A stretch of 16,998 bases of DNA, from the IMG/VR virus record IMGVR_UViG_3300020049_008481, one strand, 5' to 3'. Position 1 is the stretch's first letter, and every line of letters starts with the position of its first letter. Below, in pieces: positions 1-13,752 of the stretch. Made by a program: the position numbers and the translations under genes. The notes beneath the pieces are model-generated. The model saw only the letters and a program-made list of their open reading frames with translations, had not been told where the DNA came from and did not search any database. The DNA is from a virus (Duplodnaviria > Heunggongvirae > Uroviricota > Caudoviricetes).

Positions 1-211
1 ACACACTAGGTTGGCAAAGAGTGAGACAGCCAACCAAGACGGGAAAGCCGAGCGACCCGGAAGCCACAAGGGCGACCGGGCCGACGACCGACACACTAGG
101 TTGGCAAAGAGTGAGACAGCCAACCAAGACGGGAAAGCCGAGCGACCCGGAAGCCACAAGGGCGACCGGGCCGACGACCGACACACTAGGTTGGCAAAGA
201 GTGAGACAGCC
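1..211. repeat. 90-bp exact tandem repeat (copies 1-90, 91-180, partial 181-211); the array may continue left of the window
   Basis: The unit beginning ACACACTAGGTTGGCAAAGAGTGAGACAGC recurs at 1, 91 and 181 with identical intervening sequence. Each unit contains a GGTTGGC/GCCAACC stem around a 13-nt loop. Confidence 0.97.
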
Positions 212-475
212 TACCGGGCGAGCAGTTCGGCCACCCGGTAGGAACCATCCCGGATGGAACCACGTCGCACCAGTGCCCCGTCCTTGCACAACCGGCCAAG
301 GGTAGCGACCGAACAGCCAAGGAATGCCATCGCATCGGACGCACTGCACCAATCAGCCGCGTCCATGCCATCCAGCCGGGATGAATCGGCTGTTGTGCCC
401 TTGTTCTTGGCTCGCTTCTGGGGCGTCGTGCCGTCCGCACATACGTCAAGTAACCGTCAATAGAGTCTCAACAGT

Positions 476-1990
476 ACGGCTTTGCTAAGGAGGCAGAGCC
501 TATCTGTGGACATTCTGTTGTCCAGATAGAACACGTTTCGCCAACGTGACTATTACTCGGCATCCTTGCGAGGATATCGAGACATTCCATTGTTAGGTTA
601 TTCTCCTTTGGAATGAGGCTCCTTGTCAGTAATATCGACAAGAGGTGAACCTAGTATCTCCGAAATAACAGGATAGGTTCGCTCCCCACGTGCGTTTAGA
701 GGTATTGTCCCTACACTCGCCATAGCGGCGTGACCTGGACTGCCACCACTCATAGGCCACATATCGCCAACGTGAGTAGGTGTCTAGTCAAATCAGTGTC
801 ACTTTAGGACATTACCCCCGTCCTAGTGGGGTTTGGTTGTCAGGTGAGATAGGCTGAAAGTTGCTTGTCTCACTCTTTGGCAACCTGTTGTGTCGGATCG
901 GTTCGGCTTTCGGTCGCGCTAATTCGGCATGCCCTAGGTTTAGGTAGCGTTGTCATAACGCCTAGGGGAAACTATCTGAATCAGCAAGTGAATCAGATAG
1001 ATCGCAGTAGGAAAGGGAGACGCACATACATAATATCCCTACTGCGTGCGTGCTAGTACGCTAAGACTAGATACAAGGGTGACATTCCCTATAGGTACAT
1101 CACGTTTCACCTATGACACAAATGACGTGAGAACGACACTACCCTAGCGCCCATGAATCGGTCGTATAGGCATCAGGTGTGGGCTGAAACCTAACGAAGA
1201 TTAGGCATGTAGTACCGGGTGATACCGGAATGCTGAAACACAATAGGTGAACGCTAGAATGTGCAGTCAAGACCGAGAAACCTTGGCTGTGCAGCGTGAG
1301 GAATAGTTTAGAAGAGCATTCCTCAGAACCTAAGGCGTGAGGGTATACCCTACCTAATCAGTAGGGTATTTGGCAACCCTTGCAATATAGGTGAGCGGTC
1401 TTTCCTATGGCGAAGATGGGATAGACATAACATAGCCTCTATAACTAAGACCTAGTGAAAGAGTCGATGCTCACATGCTACATGTGACTTCTAACTAGAC
1501 TTGGGGTATTCACAAGAACCCTGGGCCTAAACGTGAAGTGTGTGAGTAATGTTCGGGAACGAAGTCCCATAAGTAGAGGAAATCCAAGTTCGGGTAGACA
1601 TATGCCGGATGAGGATAATCGGATTAGGAATCTTCGGATACCTTCGCTGCACCGATCGGTAGGAATACCATACTGTTTCGGAATAATGTAGCAATCTGGT
1701 TACCCTTAGCAACAGAAGGCACAGTGGGCCGAACGAGGATTCACGGGGTTCTAGCGAATCTCTGCAACTAGCCTGGGGCAGCCAGCAACATACTGCCACG
1801 AAAGTTAGGCGTCTGGTCATATCGCTGCTATGACTACAGGTTGCATCATACCTGGGGTGAGAAATGATGCAATGCGCACTAGCATACGGCTTAGAGTTGG
1901 CGCAGTCATAATCTAAGCATGAGCAATAGGCTCCCTCTCATAGAAGCAACGGGGCCTGTGTCGGTCAGTTGAGCATACTGACAGAAGTAA
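476..1990 (+). ncRNA. Candidate large structured ncRNA (family not recognised; boundaries approximate)
   Basis: No ORF of 100 aa or more lies inside, and the short ORFs lack RBS and codon bias. About 20 hairpins were found by eye, e.g. 478-485/493-500, 532-537/543-548, 583-589/609-615, 647-653/674-680, 932-938/961-967, 972-979/993-1000, 1003-1011/1038-1046, 1297-1304/1318-1325, 1345-1353/1361-1369, 1471-1477/1481-1487, 1841-1849/1864-1872. The strand is inferred from G-U pairs and the flanking genes. Confidence 0.7.
861..920 (-). repeat. Diverged inverted copy of ~55 nt of the 90-bp repeat unit
   Basis: The reverse complement of 866-896 (CCGACACAACAGGTTGCCAAAGAGTGAGACA) matches the repeat (CCGACACACTAGGTTGGCAAAGAGTGAGACA) at 28 of 31 positions. 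Gapped similarity extends to about 920. Confidence 0.9.
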
Positions 1991-1997
1991 ATGCTCC

Positions 1998-2053
1998 GGT
2001 ATGTGGCAGAAGTTGGTGCCAGAGTTTCCGTTCGACCCGGAGGCATACCGCCA
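1998..2053 (+). ncRNA. tRNA-like element lacking an anticodon arm (56 nt, CCA encoded)
   Basis: Acceptor stem GGTATGT(1998-2004)/GCATACC(2043-2049), G discriminator and CCA (2051-2053). Canonical T-arm TTCCG-TTCGACC-CGGAG (2026-2042). Only one D-like hairpin, GGCA-GAAGTTGG-TGCC (2005-2020), lies in between. Confidence 0.8.
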
Positions 2054-2099
2054 TGCGTAGTAGATAGCTGCGCAGTGGCTAGCAGGAGCAAGTGCCCAA

Positions 2100-2624
2100 A
2101 TGAGCAAGAACATCACCTGGGTCGATTCCCCGACCCTCAAGCAGAACGTCCTCAACGGGGTCGAGGGAGCAGCCGACATGTGTCGGGATCGGCTCCTGAA
2201 CAACTCGATCCGGGCGTTCGCCGTGGACTACCTCGTCACGGCGATGGAGTCCGTGGGGGAGCCGTTCCGGCTCGGCAAGGCGAACGAGGCGAAGCTCAAG
2301 AGCTTCCGTGCCTCTGCAGCCAGCGCCCGTCCGGTCAAGTCCGCCGAAGAGAAGCAGGCCATCTCCGAGGCGCAGGACAAGCGTGCCGAGTCCGCCCTGT
2401 TCGGCACCTGGATGTATCGCCAGGACACCCCGATCGCCCGGTGGGAGGCGCTGGAGTTCTTCGGCGTCGAGGCCGCACGTGAGGACACCATCGTCAAGTA
2501 CGCCGCCCAGAAGGCGAAGTACCTGTCGGTCGAGGCCAACCAGAAGGCGTACAACGCCCGCAAGGAGGCCCGCACGGAGCTGATCGAGCAGTTCCGTGAC
2601 GAGTCCGCCGAGGCGGCTGCCTGA
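2100..2624 (+). CDS. Hypothetical protein, 174 aa, Ala/Lys/Glu-rich and probably helical
   Basis: AGGAG RBS upstream, very strong GC3 codon bias with no TTA/ATA/AGA codons, and a terminator hairpin downstream. Confidence 0.9.
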   Translation: MSKNITWVDSPTLKQNVLNGVEGAADMCRDRLLNNSIRAFAVDYLVTAMESVGEPFRLGKANEAKLKSFRASAASARPVKSAEEKQAISEAQDKRAESALFGTWMYRQDTPIARWEALEFFGVEAAREDTIVKYAAQKAKYLSVEANQKAYNARKEARTELIEQFRDESAEAAA

Positions 2625-2643
2625 TCCATCCGAAGCTGTCAGA

Positions 2644-2673
2644 CCTGGGGAGGGGAGCAATCCTCTCCCCAGG
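2644..2673 (+). terminator. GC-rich hairpin terminator (no U-tract)
   Basis: 13-bp stem CCTGGGGAGGGGA/TCCTCTCCCCAGG (one G-U pair) with a GCAA tetraloop, 20 nt after the stop of 2100-2624. Confidence 0.7.
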
Positions 2674-2677
2674 CAGG

Positions 2678-2705
2678 CTGACAACCGTCAGTGTCCAGCT
2701 ATAAC
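2678..2705 (+). promoter_or_regulatory. Possible sigma70-type promoter
   Basis: CTGACA (2678-2683), 16-nt spacer, TATAAC (2700-2705), directly after the terminator. The -10 overlaps a 16-bp inverted repeat. Confidence 0.35.
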
Positions 2706-3228
2706 AGCCCTAGTTACGCTTGCGATGGGTTTGAGCAGCGTAGTAAGTGGGAGTGGTGTCCCCACTAGGGCTGTTATAGGTGCATACCGGCATTGGTTGC
2801 ACTAGCGAAAGGGGAGTGATCCTAAATGGCCTAGTTTCTTCTTTCTCACCTAACATACGACATCCCTGCGGATCGCTAGTATCCAGCAGGTTCAACCTCG
2901 CTTGAGGCTTGCCGTTGTAACTCGTCCGAAAGGATAGGGCTGCAGGACACAAGTAGATTCCTGGCCTCCTGAGTAGGGAGTTGCATAAAGGCAAATGCGC
3001 CATAGTGGCAACCCTATGGGAATCAAAGTTGCATACGGGTTTCCTGCTTTGCCCAAATCTAAAGCAGGTGGTGGAAGCGGACTCTACACGAGTCAGCCCC
3101 AAAGGCGATCAAGAAATGCTATCTCCCCCCTGGAATAGCTGCCTTGTACTGATCTGGAAGCCGTGCACGGTAAAGGGGGCCTTTCTCTGGCAGCTTTGAG
3201 CGCCGATGATTTACCCAAACACCCAACA
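2699..3228 (+). ncRNA. Second candidate structured ncRNA (~530 nt; family not recognised)
   Basis: No credible CDS. Perfect 16-bp stem 2699-2714/2764-2779. Other stems: 2865-2869/2886-2890, TCC-GAAA-GGA at 2925-2934, 3000-3005/3014-3019, 3043-3050/3061-3068, 3080-3084/3090-3094, and long-range 3025-3032/3190-3197 and 3169-3174/3210-3215. Confidence 0.6.
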
Positions 3229-3241
3229 AGGAGCAAGTGCC

Positions 3242-5086: not shown

Positions 5087-5331
5087 TGGCAGCATGTCTG
5101 AGTGCCAGGGCGGTCACTCTTGCCCTACGTCACAAGTTCGAAGGTGCAGAAGAACGTACCTACACGGTCATCTGTCCGAGCGGTTGGTCCAAGTCAACTT
5201 TCCTCAAGTACGTGCGGAGATACCATCCACATGAGACTGCAAGGATCGTAGAATGGCCTCAGCCGAGCCAGTGGCTTGTGAACCCTGACGGGTACGAGAA
5301 CTACAGAACAGGAACAGGATGGACTGAATGA
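5086..5331 (+). CDS. Hypothetical protein, 81 aa (MAACLSARAV...)
   Basis: TGATG coupling at 5084-5088 and an ATGA overlap with the phosphoesterase. It forms the 3' part of the track's 194-aa ORF. Confidence 0.6.
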   Translation: MAACLSARAVTLALRHKFEGAEERTYTVICPSGWSKSTFLKYVRRYHPHETARIVEWPQPSQWLVNPDGYENYRTGTGWTE

Positions 5332-5897
5332 GCAACATCTTCTACACCTCGGATCTTCACTTCTCACACACCAACATCCTCACCTACTGCAATCGCCCTT
5401 GGGACAGCGTCCTCGAGATGAACGAGGGGCTGATTGACAACTGGAACAGCGTCGTTGGTGCAGATGACATCACCTACATCATCGGTGATGTGTGTATGGG
5501 CCGACGTGATGAGACTGTCCCGTTGGTGTCCCGGCTGAACGGACGCAAGATCCTGATCCCTGGGAACCACGATGACTGCCATCCCATGTACGCTTCCCGG
5601 AACAACTTTGTGAGGCGTTGTGTGTTGTACTCTGAGCACATGGAGATTACAGAAGTGCAGGGAGTTATTGACACGCCCCCTGTAGCTTCAGTATGTCACT
5701 TCCCTTTCGCTGGGTCAGGTGACCACACAGACGAGGAACGCTACACGGAATGGCGTCCAGTAGACCACGGCCAATGGCTGATCCACGGTCATATCCATGA
5801 CCTATGGAAGCAGAATGGCCGCATGATCAACGTAGGTGTGGACGTTTGGGATTACCGCCCTGTCCACACCGATCAGCTCTTGGAGTTGATGAGCTAG
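5328..5897 (+). CDS. Calcineurin-like metallophosphoesterase
   Basis: Motifs SDLHFSH, GDV, GNHD, CH and HGHIH appear in canonical order. Confidence 0.93.
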   Translation: MSNIFYTSDLHFSHTNILTYCNRPWDSVLEMNEGLIDNWNSVVGADDITYIIGDVCMGRRDETVPLVSRLNGRKILIPGNHDDCHPMYASRNNFVRRCVLYSEHMEITEVQGVIDTPPVASVCHFPFAGSGDHTDEERYTEWRPVDHGQWLIHGHIHDLWKQNGRMINVGVDVWDYRPVHTDQLLELMS

Positions 5898-5909: not shown

Positions 5910-6632
5910 ATGACAACCCAGTTCTTTGAAGTTGGTGGATGTGTCAGGGATTCCCTCCTTGGCCTGGAATCCAACGATGTAGATTTCACCGTTGTTGGCC
6001 CTGCCAGCTTCGATGATTTCCATGCAGAACTCACAGGTATGGGATTTCAAATCTTCGAGTCCCGTCCCGAGTTCTTCACAATCAGGGCCAAGGTTCCTGA
6101 CTCGATGCCTGAACTTCGTGCCAGGACTCGGGTTGCTGACTTCGTACTGGCCCGTAGGGACGGACCTTCCTCGGACGGTAGACGGCCTGACTTCACCGTT
6201 CCAGGGAATCTGTTCGATGACCTAGACAGGCGTGACTTCACGGTCAACGCTATGGCTCGTGGACTTGACGGTGTTCTCCATGACCCCTTCAATGGGCAAG
6301 AGGACCTAGCGAACAGGACTCTACGGTTCGTTGGTGTTGCTGCTGTGAGGATCGAAGAAGATGGCTTGCGTGTCCTTCGTGGGCTGCGGTTCATGGTCAC
6401 GAAGAGCCTGACGCCCACTCCTGAGACATTTCGCGACTTGCAGTCGGTGTTTGCAGCCGAAATGCTTGGCTGTGTGTCCAAGGAGCGTAGACGTGAGGAA
6501 CTGAACAAGATGTTGGCGTTCGATACGATGACATCTTTCGAGCTTCTTGCGAGCCTGCCCACTATCACTGTCGAGGCTATCCTTGCAGGTGGGCTTCGAC
6601 TCAAGGCTACGATGGAAGAAGGTTCGTTCTAA
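5910..6632 (+). CDS. cca: tRNA nucleotidyltransferase (class II, CCA-adding/poly(A) polymerase family), compact with no HD domain
   Basis: VGGCVRDSLLG..DVDF, DLDRRDFTVNAMA, DPFNGQEDL, EDGLRVLRGLRF, SKER..EEL. Confidence 0.92.
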   Translation: MTTQFFEVGGCVRDSLLGLESNDVDFTVVGPASFDDFHAELTGMGFQIFESRPEFFTIRAKVPDSMPELRARTRVADFVLARRDGPSSDGRRPDFTVPGNLFDDLDRRDFTVNAMARGLDGVLHDPFNGQEDLANRTLRFVGVAAVRIEEDGLRVLRGLRFMVTKSLTPTPETFRDLQSVFAAEMLGCVSKERRREELNKMLAFDTMTSFELLASLPTITVEAILAGGLRLKATMEEGSF

Positions 6633-9759: not shown

Positions 9760-9845
9760 GGGGCGATATTCAAGTCTGGTTCGAAGAAGCATGTCTTATA
9801 AACATGTGGCAATGCCCATCGTGAGTTCAAATCTCACTCGCCCTA
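9760..9845 (+). tRNA. tRNA with anticodon TAT (nominally Ile) and a class II-type long variable arm; no encoded CCA
   Basis: Acceptor GGGGCGA/TCGCCCT plus A73. 3-bp D-stem TTC/GAA. Anticodon arm CATGT-CTTATAA-ACATG. 14-nt variable region containing GGC-AAT-GCC. T-arm GTGAG-TTCAAAT-CTCAC. Confidence 0.85.
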
Positions 9846-9902
9846 CAAAAGCGTAGTCGGCGGAGGCCGATCCTCCCCGGCCCCACTAGACAAGGAGAAA
9901 AC

Positions 9903-10401: not shown

Positions 10402-10857
10402 ATGACTGTTGTAACTGTTGGGATTGGAATCCCCGGAAGTGGTAAGACCACGTTCCTCGGTAAAGATCTGAATGAAAGTTTCTACATTTGTGCGGACGAT
10501 ATCCGTAAGGAACTTACAGGCAATGCCAGTGACCAGGGTCGTAATAATGAAGTTTGGGAGCTTCTTTATGAGCGGGTTCACGACATCCTGATGGGTGAAG
10601 ATAGCCTCGTCATTGACGTAACAAATACACGACGTAGTGACCGACGTAAAATGATAGAGTTCTGTCACGAACATGGTGCAGAAGTTCACGGCATCTGGTT
10701 TGACACCCCACTCGATGTTTGCAAGGAACGGAATGCCCTGCGTGAACGGGTTGTTCCAGAACATGTACTAGACCGTATGCACAGGCAGTTGGTTGAGTGG
10801 CCGCCTTCGCTTGAGGATGGGTTCGATCGACTGCACAAGATCACGGAGATTACATAG
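10402..10857 (+). CDS. P-loop kinase, AAA_33 / polynucleotide-kinase-like
   Basis: Walker A GIPGSGKTT, DDIR, D.TN....R, and C..RN..R.R.VP. Confidence 0.9.
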   Translation: MTVVTVGIGIPGSGKTTFLGKDLNESFYICADDIRKELTGNASDQGRNNEVWELLYERVHDILMGEDSLVIDVTNTRRSDRRKMIEFCHEHGAEVHGIWFDTPLDVCKERNALRERVVPEHVLDRMHRQLVEWPPSLEDGFDRLHKITEIT

Positions 10858-10864
10858 CTGACAT

Positions 10865-10938
10865 GCCCCTATAGTCCAATTGGCAGAGACAGGAGACTTA
10901 AAATCTCTACAGTGTGGATTCGAGTTCCACTAGGGGTA
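10865..10938 (+). tRNA. trnL: tRNA-Leu(TAA), short variable loop, no encoded CCA
   Basis: Acceptor GCCCCTA/TAGGGGT plus A. Anticodon arm GGAGA-CTTAAAA-TCTCT. T-arm GTGGA-TTCGAGT-TCCAC. Confidence 0.9.
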
Positions 10939-10970
10939 CGAAGAATGGGGTTCAGTTGAGCAATCAGCAT

Positions 10971-11797: not shown

Positions 11798-12901
11798 GTG
11801 AAAATCTATGACCTGCTAGACGTAGAGCTTTTAGGGTCACACGTAGAAGCACGGCTCGTCAGCGAGACTGCCCACCCAACTGAGCCACTAGTCATCTACA
11901 ACTACACTCAAACCTGTCAATACACTGGTAGATGGGATGATGTGACCAAGCGATGCCGTGGGCTGATCGTCAACAGCGAAACCCAAGAGGTTGTGGCTAG
12001 ACCATTTTCAAAGTTTTTCAACCTCGGTGAACATCACGGTGGCACCCCAGCAGCAGGACCACTCAACTTACAGCCACCGCTCAGAGTCTATGACAAGATG
12101 GATGGTTCCCTAGGAATTGCGTATAGGCTGCCATCAACGGGGGCGTTAGCGTGGGCCACACGTGGATCATTCTTTTCAGAGCAGGCTGCATGGGCCACTG
12201 AATACTGGAACGAACGCTACGACATGTGCGAATTGGATGAGAATTTCACTTGGTTAGCTGAAATCATCTATCCCCAAAATCGTATCGTCGTAGACTACGG
12301 TAACTATGCCAGCCTGGTATTGTTGTCAATCATTGACACCGAAACAGGCTTGCATCATGAAACCCTAGAGTTGAAGGCACAATGGCCTGTTGACCATGTG
12401 GATTTCTTCGGTGAAGCCACCGATCCTGAGACTGTCGATCCTAACGATCGTACCGGCGCTGAGGGTTACGTTATCCTTTCAGGTGACGGGGTTACCAGAG
12501 TCAAGGTTAAGGCTGATGAATATGTCAGGCTGCACAGGCTGGTGACTGGTGTTTCTTCCCGTACAATCTGGGAGATGCTTTCCAGTGGCGCACCGTTGGA
12601 GGAACTGTATGAGAAAGTGCCTGATGAGTTCTCTGATTGGGTTAACCAAACAGTAGACTCGCTTAACAATCAGTTTCGTGAGATTGTTGAAACAGTTACG
12701 TATGATTTCATCGAAGTTCTTCACCGCACCGATCATCTTACAAGAGAGCAAGAGGTTGACCGTAGGCAATTCGCTGAGGTAGCCAAAGAGACGCAGTATC
12801 CTGGCCTGTTGTTTGCTCTACTTGACAACAAGGATATTTCTGCTAGAATCTGGAAGATGGTAAAACCTGAGTGGACTTTACCATTTAGGAAGGATGAGTA
12901 A
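11798..12901 (+). CDS. RNA ligase, T4 Rnl1-like
   Basis: KFFN, motif I KMDGSLG, ATRGSF, AEII.PQNRIVVDY, EGYV, VKVK...Y. Confidence 0.93.
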   Translation: MKIYDLLDVELLGSHVEARLVSETAHPTEPLVIYNYTQTCQYTGRWDDVTKRCRGLIVNSETQEVVARPFSKFFNLGEHHGGTPAAGPLNLQPPLRVYDKMDGSLGIAYRLPSTGALAWATRGSFFSEQAAWATEYWNERYDMCELDENFTWLAEIIYPQNRIVVDYGNYASLVLLSIIDTETGLHHETLELKAQWPVDHVDFFGEATDPETVDPNDRTGAEGYVILSGDGVTRVKVKADEYVRLHRLVTGVSSRTIWEMLSSGAPLEELYEKVPDEFSDWVNQTVDSLNNQFREIVETVTYDFIEVLHRTDHLTREQEVDRRQFAEVAKETQYPGLLFALLDNKDISARIWKMVKPEWTLPFRKDE

Positions 12902-13371
12902 TGACTGTATCTGTTATCCAGGGTAATCTGTTTGAGCAAGACGTTGACGCTATAGCTCATGGTTGCAATTGTCGTGGGGTAATGGGGGCGGGTATTGCTT
13001 ACATCTTCAAGCGACGTTATCCCCAAATGTTTAAGGACTACAAGCAACGTGTTGAGCGTGGGTTATTTATCCCAGGTGATATTTTCTTCTACGGAGGTGG
13101 CGGTGAAGTAAATTGGGGAGAATGGCAAAGTCACCCTTCGGTTTACAACCTTGCAACCCAACTTAATCCTGGCAGAAATGCAACTCTCGATGCTATAGAG
13201 ACCAGTCTCTACAGAATGGAGAAGCACGCTAAGGCTATAGGGATAAGAACAATTGCTATTCCTCGCATTGGGTCAGGCATTGGCGGTCTTCCAGTTGCTG
13301 CCATAGAGAATGTAGTTCGGGAAGTATTTGAAGATAGTGAAATCCACCTAACGATCGTTGACTATCAGTAA
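12901..13371 (+). CDS. Macrodomain protein (ADP-ribose/Appr-1''-p processing; TARG1/DarG-like signature)
   Basis: GNLF..D..AIAHGCNCRGVMGAGIA, YNLATQ, IAIPRIGSGIGGL. Translationally coupled to the ligase (TAATG). Confidence 0.9.
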   Translation: MTVSVIQGNLFEQDVDAIAHGCNCRGVMGAGIAYIFKRRYPQMFKDYKQRVERGLFIPGDIFFYGGGGEVNWGEWQSHPSVYNLATQLNPGRNATLDAIETSLYRMEKHAKAIGIRTIAIPRIGSGIGGLPVAAIENVVREVFEDSEIHLTIVDYQ

Positions 13372-13479: not shown

Positions 13480-13554
13480 GCCCCTGTAGCTCAGCCAGGA
13501 AAGAGCGGCAAACTTCTAATTTGCTGGTCGGGAGTTCAAATCTCTCCGGGGGCA
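13480..13554 (+). tRNA. trnR: tRNA-Arg(TCT), no encoded CCA
   Basis: Acceptor GCCCCTG/CGGGGGC plus A. Anticodon arm GCAAA-CTTCTAA-TTTGC. T-arm GGGAG-TTCAAAT-CTCTC. Confidence 0.95.
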
Positions 13555-13557
13555 CTT

Positions 13558-13752
13558 ATGATTAAAGCAACCCAAGCAGCATCACAAAGAACAAAAAACC
13601 GTGTACGAGAACACACCGACCATTGGGAACACACACAAACCAGAAACAACATCGTTTCATTTCCTGGACAGACAGTAGCAGAGTTTCGCTGCCCAGAGTC
13701 TTGTGGTTGGTTTGGATGGGTTCCCCTAAACGAAATAGATTATGGAGAATAA
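13558..13752 (+). CDS. Hypothetical protein, 64 aa, with a C-terminal CPxxC
   Basis: The ORF fills the gap. There is no room for an RBS after the tRNA. Confidence 0.6.
   Translation: MIKATQAASQRTKNRVREHTDHWEHTQTRNNIVSFPGQTVAEFRCPESCGWFGWVPLNEIDYGE

Follow-up and report, generated by a model that had tools for sequence, protein, structure and literature searches.

What is a tRNA-like element without an anticodon arm doing at the boundary of a phage gene? The question is raised by 56 nucleotides in the stretch of viral DNA analysed here (16,998 nt in all, referred to below as the window), which an earlier note had described as a 7-bp acceptor stem, a 21-nt spacer holding a single D-like hairpin with GG in its loop, a textbook T arm, a discriminator G73 and a CCA end. 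Every one of these parts can be read in the sequence, and their coordinates are collected in Table 1 together with those of the surrounding features. The acceptor stem of 7 bp consists of six Watson-Crick pairs and one wobble of the U7-G66 type, and over the three stems 16 of 16 pairs are intact. The loop of the D-like hairpin has 8 nt (GAAGUUGG) with AGUUGG at its end, and its GG occupies positions 18-19 of the element, matching G18 and G19 of tRNA, the two bases that dock on the T loop in tRNA. The T loop in turn (UUCGACC) matches the T54-Psi55-C56-R57-A58 pattern, and the G53:C61 pair is present. With a spacer of only 21 nt between acceptor and T stem, the anticodon arm is absent and there is no room for one. 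The 3:70 pair is U:A, and hence the element does not carry the alanine mark. The minimum free energy (MFE) fold of the 56 nt contains the three helices as read, with their register moved slightly (5-bp acceptor, 5-bp hairpin, 7-bp T stem), and still gives a 12-bp stack of acceptor and T stems; the stability of this fold barely exceeds that of shuffled sequences (z = -1.29).

Table 1. Positions in the window of the tRNA-like element, its parts, the adjoining features and the genes of tRNA repair and maturation.
Feature	Position	Strand	Remarks and basis
tRNA-like element	1998-2053	+	56 nt; sequence read directly
Acceptor stem, 5' strand GGUAUGU	1998-2004	+	pairs with 2043-2049
D-arm-like hairpin, 4-bp stem GGCA/UGCC	2005-2008/2017-2020	+	directly abuts the acceptor stem; direct reading and fold
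Linker, 5 nt, in the place of the variable region	2021-2025	+	direct reading
T arm, 5-bp stem and loop UUCGACC	2026-2030/2038-2042	+	direct reading and structure scanner
Acceptor 3' strand (2043-2049), discriminator G (2050), encoded CCA (2051-2053)	2043-2053	+	direct reading and structure scanner
ORF-free low-GC stretch (44-52%), possible long 5' leader or non-coding RNA	454-1991	+	no credible ORF; no JGI gene call on the identical contig L083; GC profile; ORF-free and of low GC as far as 2099
UGCUCC, last 6 nt of the 5' leader, anti-SD	1992-1997	+	exact complement of GGAGCA 2085-2090 (ribosome-binding site)
Hairpin directly 3' of the element, 8 bp	2054-2061/2067-2074	+	folds
Ribosome-binding site AGGAG (2084-2088), spacer, ATG	2084-2102	+	direct reading; leader AGGAGCAAGUGCC recurs at 3229
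Downstream gene, 174-aa orphan protein	2100-2624	+	gene call
Phosphoesterase	5328-5897		
CCA-adding enzyme	5910-6632		
Polynucleotide kinase (AAA_33)	10402-10857		
Rnl1-type RNA ligase	11798-12901		
Macro-domain protein	12901-13371		

To assess how much of this anatomy could arise at random, we scanned both strands of the window for a 7-bp acceptor and a 5-bp T stem with a TTCRANN loop. The scanner matched four real tRNAs and the element, and nothing else; when NCCA was required, only the tRNA-Tyr and the element remained. In 3000 dinucleotide-preserving shuffles the expectation per window is 0.0017 matches with CCA and 0.058 without it. The element is thus a real feature of the sequence, although the shuffle test was made post hoc. 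Its T-arm-like hairpin is the sole one in the ORF-free regions of the window, and its CCA does not reflect a habit of the genome, because only one of the four real tRNAs (the tRNA-Tyr) encodes CCA.

The element belongs to none of the familiar RNA classes against which we compared it. ARAGORN, which the earlier note had suggested running, misses it in the default, relaxed (-ps), mitochondrial and tmRNA modes alike; all that the program returns at a 50% threshold is an 82-nt fold of poor quality whose acceptor is mismatched. A search of all Rfam families gave no match at E<=10, whether with 2.6 kb or with just 81 nt. A canonical tRNA (RF00005) was rejected on this negative result and on the 21-nt spacer, which cannot hold both a D arm and an anticodon arm. 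A tmRNA, which the note had also dismissed, is contradicted by U3:A70 in the place of G3:U70 and by negative results from both the ARAGORN tmRNA mode and the Rfam tmRNA families. Moreover, of all 7-mers within 1.7 kb upstream, just the local one at 1998-2004 is able to pair with 2043-2049, and tmRNA-type closure from a distance is excluded because the local strand alone can close the acceptor. In Y RNAs of the YrlA type, a loop closes the acceptor-like stem, the RNA terminates in a Ro-binding helix, and a gene for Ro60 (TROVE) lies nearby. The acceptor end of the element is open and carries GCCA, no Rfam family matches, and the precomputed Pfam matches of the genes called on the identical contig include no TROVE gene, so that the note was right in setting this class aside as well. 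Neither mascRNA/menRNA (RF01684) nor the viral tRNA-like structures of Rfam match at E<=10.

The surroundings of the element are those of a phage genome rich in tRNA-related functions. The proteins of the window, which is phage DNA, are found on a contig of 130.7 kb. From position 433 on, two JGI metagenome contigs (L083 and L084) match the window at 100% identity, and the phage is known solely through metagenomes, the JGI samples 3300020037 and 3300005664; the closest phage proteins to those of the window are only 40-56% identical. Each of the four real tRNAs (Tyr, Ile, Leu, Arg) stands alone between plus-strand ORFs, 3-57 nt before the next start. The element ends 46 nt before the ATG at 2100, and its layout is like that of the tRNA-Ile: the tRNA is followed by a hairpin and AAGGAG, the element by a hairpin and AGGAG. 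Interleaved with the tRNAs lie genes whose predicted products (phosphoesterase, CCA enzyme, kinase, ligase and Macro protein) are, judged by their sequences, a tRNA repair and maturation kit.

Some of the real tRNAs are themselves unusual. The 'Ile' tRNA with a UAU anticodon (9760-9846) has a long variable region, and the 'Leu' tRNA with a UAA anticodon (10865-10939) measures only 74-75 nt and is without a long variable arm. The tRNA-Arg (region 13480-13560) stops 3 nt short of the ATG at 13558 that opens the following ORF, and any ribosome-binding site of that ORF would fall inside the 3' strand of the tRNA's acceptor. A further observation concerns the left end of the window. The first 432 nt diverge from the two otherwise identical contigs (window 1-438 against L083 869-1306, and L084), where the divergent stretch is inverted and lies about 650 nt further upstream; in these contigs an intact gene for a 111-aa orphan, a protein on record on 3 contigs, extends into window position 453. 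The junction of the divergence shares only the 6-nt GTCCGC, and the difference is either an inversion of roughly 1.08 kb or an assembly chimera. The same end contains 90-bp tandem repeats (window 1-215; L083 1066-1431 on the minus strand, with at least 4 copies in L083) that lie inside a called gene of 121 aa on the opposite strand; the protein it encodes is a repeat of 30 residues. Because the repeats fall within this called gene, the hairpin array at window 1-215 may be coding.

Upstream of the element extends the low-GC stretch that the earlier note had taken for a large non-coding RNA. Rfam at E<=10 finds nothing in this ORF-free stretch, and folding is better than that of shuffled sequences (z = -2 to -3.5) only for 476-1450; for 1376-1975 z is about 0, and the 600 nt directly upstream of the element fold no better than shuffles. 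Two small frames in the stretch, 677-733 and 1258-1299, have endings that resemble tmRNA tags (...AIAA* and ...GCAA*); around them we found no tRNA-like closure, and ARAGORN called no tmRNA there. Downstream, the 174-aa protein belongs to no family and has no homologue except itself, and both flanking genes (174 aa, and 111 aa upstream) are orphans among 5.8 billion proteins. No promoter or terminator could be assigned. A second ORF-free stretch of lower GC (2640-3228) ends at the second copy of the leader AGGAGCAAGUGCC (3229) and contains no tRNA-like element; the overlapping region 2576-2800, its 5' part, folds strongly, and on the minus strand z reaches -5.4.

The sequence that joins the element to the downstream gene has a feature of its own, which the earlier note did not list. 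The last six bases before the element, UGCUCC, are exactly complementary to GGAGCA in the ribosome-binding site of the gene, and the two are paired in both the MFE and the centroid folds of 1940-2100 and of 1985-2105. The latter segment (121 nt) has z = -3.64, with the element and the following hairpin closed by the UGCUCC:GGAGCA helix. The pair probability of this helix is 0.8-1.0 in contexts of up to about 220 nt and fades or is lost in 550 nt. In the partition-function model, the ribosome-binding site is unpaired with a probability of 0.00 when the leader is present and of 0.77-0.98 if the RNA starts at 1998. Because UGCUCC complements GGAGCA, a cut by RNase P between 1997 and 1998 would, in the fold model, unmask the ribosome-binding site. 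The match of UGCUCC is a post-hoc observation of a 6-mer, with a rough chance estimate of 10^-3 to 10^-2. The real tRNAs of the window show no pairing of their leaders with the next ribosome-binding site, so this arrangement is not a general rule of the genome.

We tentatively propose, at somewhat less than even odds in our own judgement, that the element is a processing signal for host tRNA-processing enzymes akin to the t-elements of plant mitochondria. The features of a minimal RNase P substrate are present, namely 7+5 bp (5+7 in the MFE register), UUCGACC, G1:C72 and GCCA, which make the element a predicted substrate; its placement is that of a t-element, a tRNA-like fold that cannot decode and stands on the coding strand where one gene borders on the next. 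Bacterial RNase P RNA cleaves an acceptor stem with T stem, T loop and 3' RCCA at the canonical site, and RNase P also processes some mRNAs and, in phages, the M3 and C4 RNAs (PMC11143913). In plant mitochondria, t-elements mark mRNA ends that are made by RNase P and RNase Z (Forner et al. 2007, PMC1920247). A signal for processing of the upstream RNA was also the first of the options raised in the earlier note, with MALAT1 and mascRNA as the model. The processing signal itself fits the context best, given the tRNA slot and the minimal substrate features, whereas MALAT1/mascRNA can serve only as an analogy, the upstream 'large ncRNA' being putative.

From the observed structure, non-randomness, tRNA-like placement and complementarity, we infer a course of transcription, cleavage and translational effect that would run as follows. 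A non-decoding module derived from tRNA would occupy a 'tRNA slot' in the early operon of the phage, where host tRNA-processing enzymes would recognise it. The region would be transcribed on the plus strand inside a long early precursor, and RNase P would cut between 1997 and 1998, detaching a non-coding leader of roughly 1.5 kb, the last six bases of which mask the next ribosome-binding site in the model. This site would then be exposed, and translation of the 174-aa gene would perhaps be turned on. Once exonucleases had trimmed the 3' side to the encoded CCA, a 56-nt CCA-ended RNA would be free, and the message of the 174-aa gene would be left starting near 2054.

Some observations run against the processing reading. 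In the precursor fold, the hairpin 3' of the element is extended by pairing of the GCCA tail (2050-2053) with UGGC (2076-2079), and in this model the paired tail should slow RNase P. The base at -1 is C, whereas the preferred base is U. With flanks of 250 nt, the pair probability of the acceptor is 0.00; three of the four real tRNAs fare better. The hexamer CAUACU (1975-1980) can pair with GGUAUG of the acceptor 5' strand and possibly forms a competing hairpin; in the folding model this competitor may explain the loss of the element in long-context folds.

No recurrence as a conserved minihelix family or as paralogues was found in the window, in the loci or in the phage, viral and metagenome collections. 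Searches with blastn of 1.75 kb and of 71 nt against 50,697 phage records at E<=10 returned no homologue, and neither an exact 29-mer nor a loops-only pattern found a relative in IMG/VR. The loops-only pattern had 77 matches in metagenome contigs, all of which are due to chance because none exceeds 9 of 12 stem pairs; the only other copies of the element are in 100% identical metagenome contigs. A covariance model built from the single sequence found no second copy in the window. The wider covariance-model search that the earlier note had suggested yielded no relative in the window or in 80 loci that surround related CCA enzymes. The structure scanner, which is independent of sequence, found no comparable short tRNA-like element in the same 80 loci (1.4 Mb), nor any in the two actinophage regions scanned, one each from Arthrobacter phage Bauer and Microbacterium phage Big4. 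A search of a limited collection of literature returned no paper on anticodon-less tRNA-like punctuation in phages, which is not proof of its absence.

The ancestry of the element can be approached through the 127 tRNAs predicted in these phage loci. The region 2004-2020 best matches the D-arm region of tRNA-Ser, one inserted A apart, and the top four of the 127 in the score for hairpin and loop are all tRNA-Ser; the GG start and the G73 of the element are typical of tRNA-Ser as well. The resemblance of the hairpin to the D arm of tRNA-Ser makes it likely that the element arose from a tRNA by deletion, and suggests that it is probably a tRNA-Ser that has lost its anticodon arm and its long variable arm. 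After the loss, the hairpin probably re-registered against the acceptor stem, without the usual linker of two bases. The T arm and acceptor of the element have no matching tRNA among the 127 in the loci, and a search of 185,579 species genomes for the exact 20-mer from the T loop to the acceptor 3' strand brought up no tRNA gene, only two chance matches, both inside coding sequence. The loss of the arms thus does not look recent, because T arm and acceptor match no tRNA examined. No further T-arm remnants were found in the ORF-free stretches of the window, and a tRNA graveyard was rejected on this ground.

Such an origin leaves room for an explanation that we regard as possible but doubtful, namely that the element is a decaying relic of a phage tRNA (probably a tRNA-Ser) after arm deletion, without a selected function, in which RNase P might still cut incidentally. 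The likeness of hairpin and loop to the D arms of tRNA-Ser, which supply the four best of 127 matches, the tRNA-Ser-like GG start and G73, the single copy without conserved relatives, the position in a low-GC ORF-free stretch that is possibly junk, and the marginal stability of the fold all speak for it. A relic would not be expected, on the other hand, to keep all its stem pairs, the T-loop consensus and the CCA, when just one of the four working tRNAs encodes CCA; a simple arm deletion would not yield a hairpin that abuts the acceptor without the 8-9 linker; and the ORF-free regions hold no other tRNA debris. The deletion does not look recent, with T arm and acceptor unmatched, and yet the fold is perfect. 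It is unlikely, in our estimation, that the element acts in trans as a 56-nt CCA-ended RNA, be it as a decoy for host toxins that target tRNA or for sensors of uncharged tRNA, or as a substrate of a CCA-adding or repair enzyme or of a synthetase. The second and third options of the earlier note, a decoy on the one hand and a primer or substrate of the phage CCA enzyme on the other, are of this kind, and the analysis neither backs nor contradicts them. A single copy with no evident strong promoter makes a poor stoichiometric sponge, both the alanine G3:U70 and the long variable arm for SerRS-type recognition are missing, the repair genes are not adjacent but 3-10 kb away, and there is no conservation. 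What recommends a trans-acting RNA is that the whole 'top half' of a tRNA is present, with a potential elbow contact between GG and T loop and a ready-made CCA, in a form immune to anticodon nucleases, and that the tRNA-repair genes of the phage imply a conflict over tRNAs; it is known that phage tRNAs counter defences that cleave tRNA (PMC11555353), which would favour a role of this kind. The toxin MenT3 requires a long variable arm (PMC11162799), and a decoy of the MenT3 type is unlikely because the element has no such arm.

The tRNA likeness might also be secondary to a role in cis. We give little credence to the proposal that the element belongs to a three-way junction in the 5' UTR of the 174-aa gene, which would hide the ribosome-binding site until opened by a protein, by temperature or by the ribosome, the resemblance to tRNA being incidental or serving autoregulation by a tRNA-binding protein in the manner of thrS. 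It is true that 1985-2105 folds as one unit (z = -3.64) in which both the ribosome-binding site and the GCCA tail are sequestered, and that this fold adjoins the start of the gene. Masking, however, has no need of a T-loop consensus, a 7+5 stack, G73-CCA and AGUUGG, which are improbable by chance; two other genes with the same ribosome-binding leader are without such a structure, and the orphan gene product shows no RNA-binding signal. Lowest in our ranking, and very improbable, stands a chance resemblance, or else a phage attachment site that duplicates the 3' portion of a host tRNA gene. That there is only one sequence and that the 56-mer alone gives a weak thermodynamic signal is in keeping with either, but chance is countered by the shuffle expectation of 0.0017 per window. 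An attachment-site copy would not bring along a matching 5' acceptor strand, the 20-mer is in no tRNA gene of the 185,579 species genomes, and the called genes include no integrase.

The processing signal, which we prefer to these explanations, may be taken one step further, into a form that we hold to be distinctly unlikely, if a little less so than masking by a 5'-UTR structure. Here the element would be a processing-gated switch that ties early expression to host tRNA processing: the last six bases of the leader would keep the ribosome-binding site shut until RNase P cuts the leader off, and the freed RNA would in addition be a tRNA mimic proof against anticodon nucleases. Should the proposed cut take place, phages would be using cut-down tRNAs for punctuation, as organelles do, and gene and tRNA finders would systematically miss a class of functional RNA signals. 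A removed leader that masks the next ribosome-binding site would, if true, be a simple coupling of translation to RNA processing.

Among known systems, the tRNA-like domain of tmRNA, including 'TLD-only' forms, shares with the element an acceptor, a T arm, a D-loop analogue, the lack of an anticodon and a CCA end, and the element differs from it in its U3:A70, in having no tag frame closed by the acceptor and in being called a tmRNA by neither ARAGORN nor Rfam. The mascRNA is a eukaryotic cloverleaf that has a short anticodon-like arm and receives its CCA after transcription, whereas the phage element has no anticodon-like arm and encodes its CCA. What the phage element would have in common with mascRNA and the MEN-beta RNA behind MALAT1 and NEAT1 (RF01684) is a tRNA-like module after a long non-coding stretch; by this analogy a cut by RNase P would form the 3' end of the upstream RNA and free a small CCA-ended RNA, with the difference that the upstream RNA of the phage is putative. 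Minihelices made of acceptor and T arm have served as model substrates of RNase P (McClain, Guerrier-Takada and Altman 1987, reviewed in PMC11143913), and the element has their 12-bp acceptor and T stack, T loop and RCCA tail, the minimal set for correct cleavage. Those minihelices are synthetic, whereas the phage element is genomic, with an extra hairpin at the junction and a GCCA that is paired in the precursor fold.

A parallel in function is provided by the t-elements of plant mitochondria and the mitochondrial model of tRNA punctuation (PMC1920247), where likewise a non-decoding tRNA-like fold stands at a gene boundary in a long transcript and is thought to direct cuts by RNase P and RNase Z. 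Transcript ends have been mapped for t-elements, whereas the phage element is known from sequence alone, and the host enzymes that would act on it would be bacterial. The phage element further differs in its D-like hairpin, its encoded CCA and its leader complementary to a ribosome-binding site. The phage element, represented by a single sequence, stands out by its retained D-like hairpin, its likely tRNA-Ser ancestry and the leader that would mask the ribosome-binding site of the next gene.
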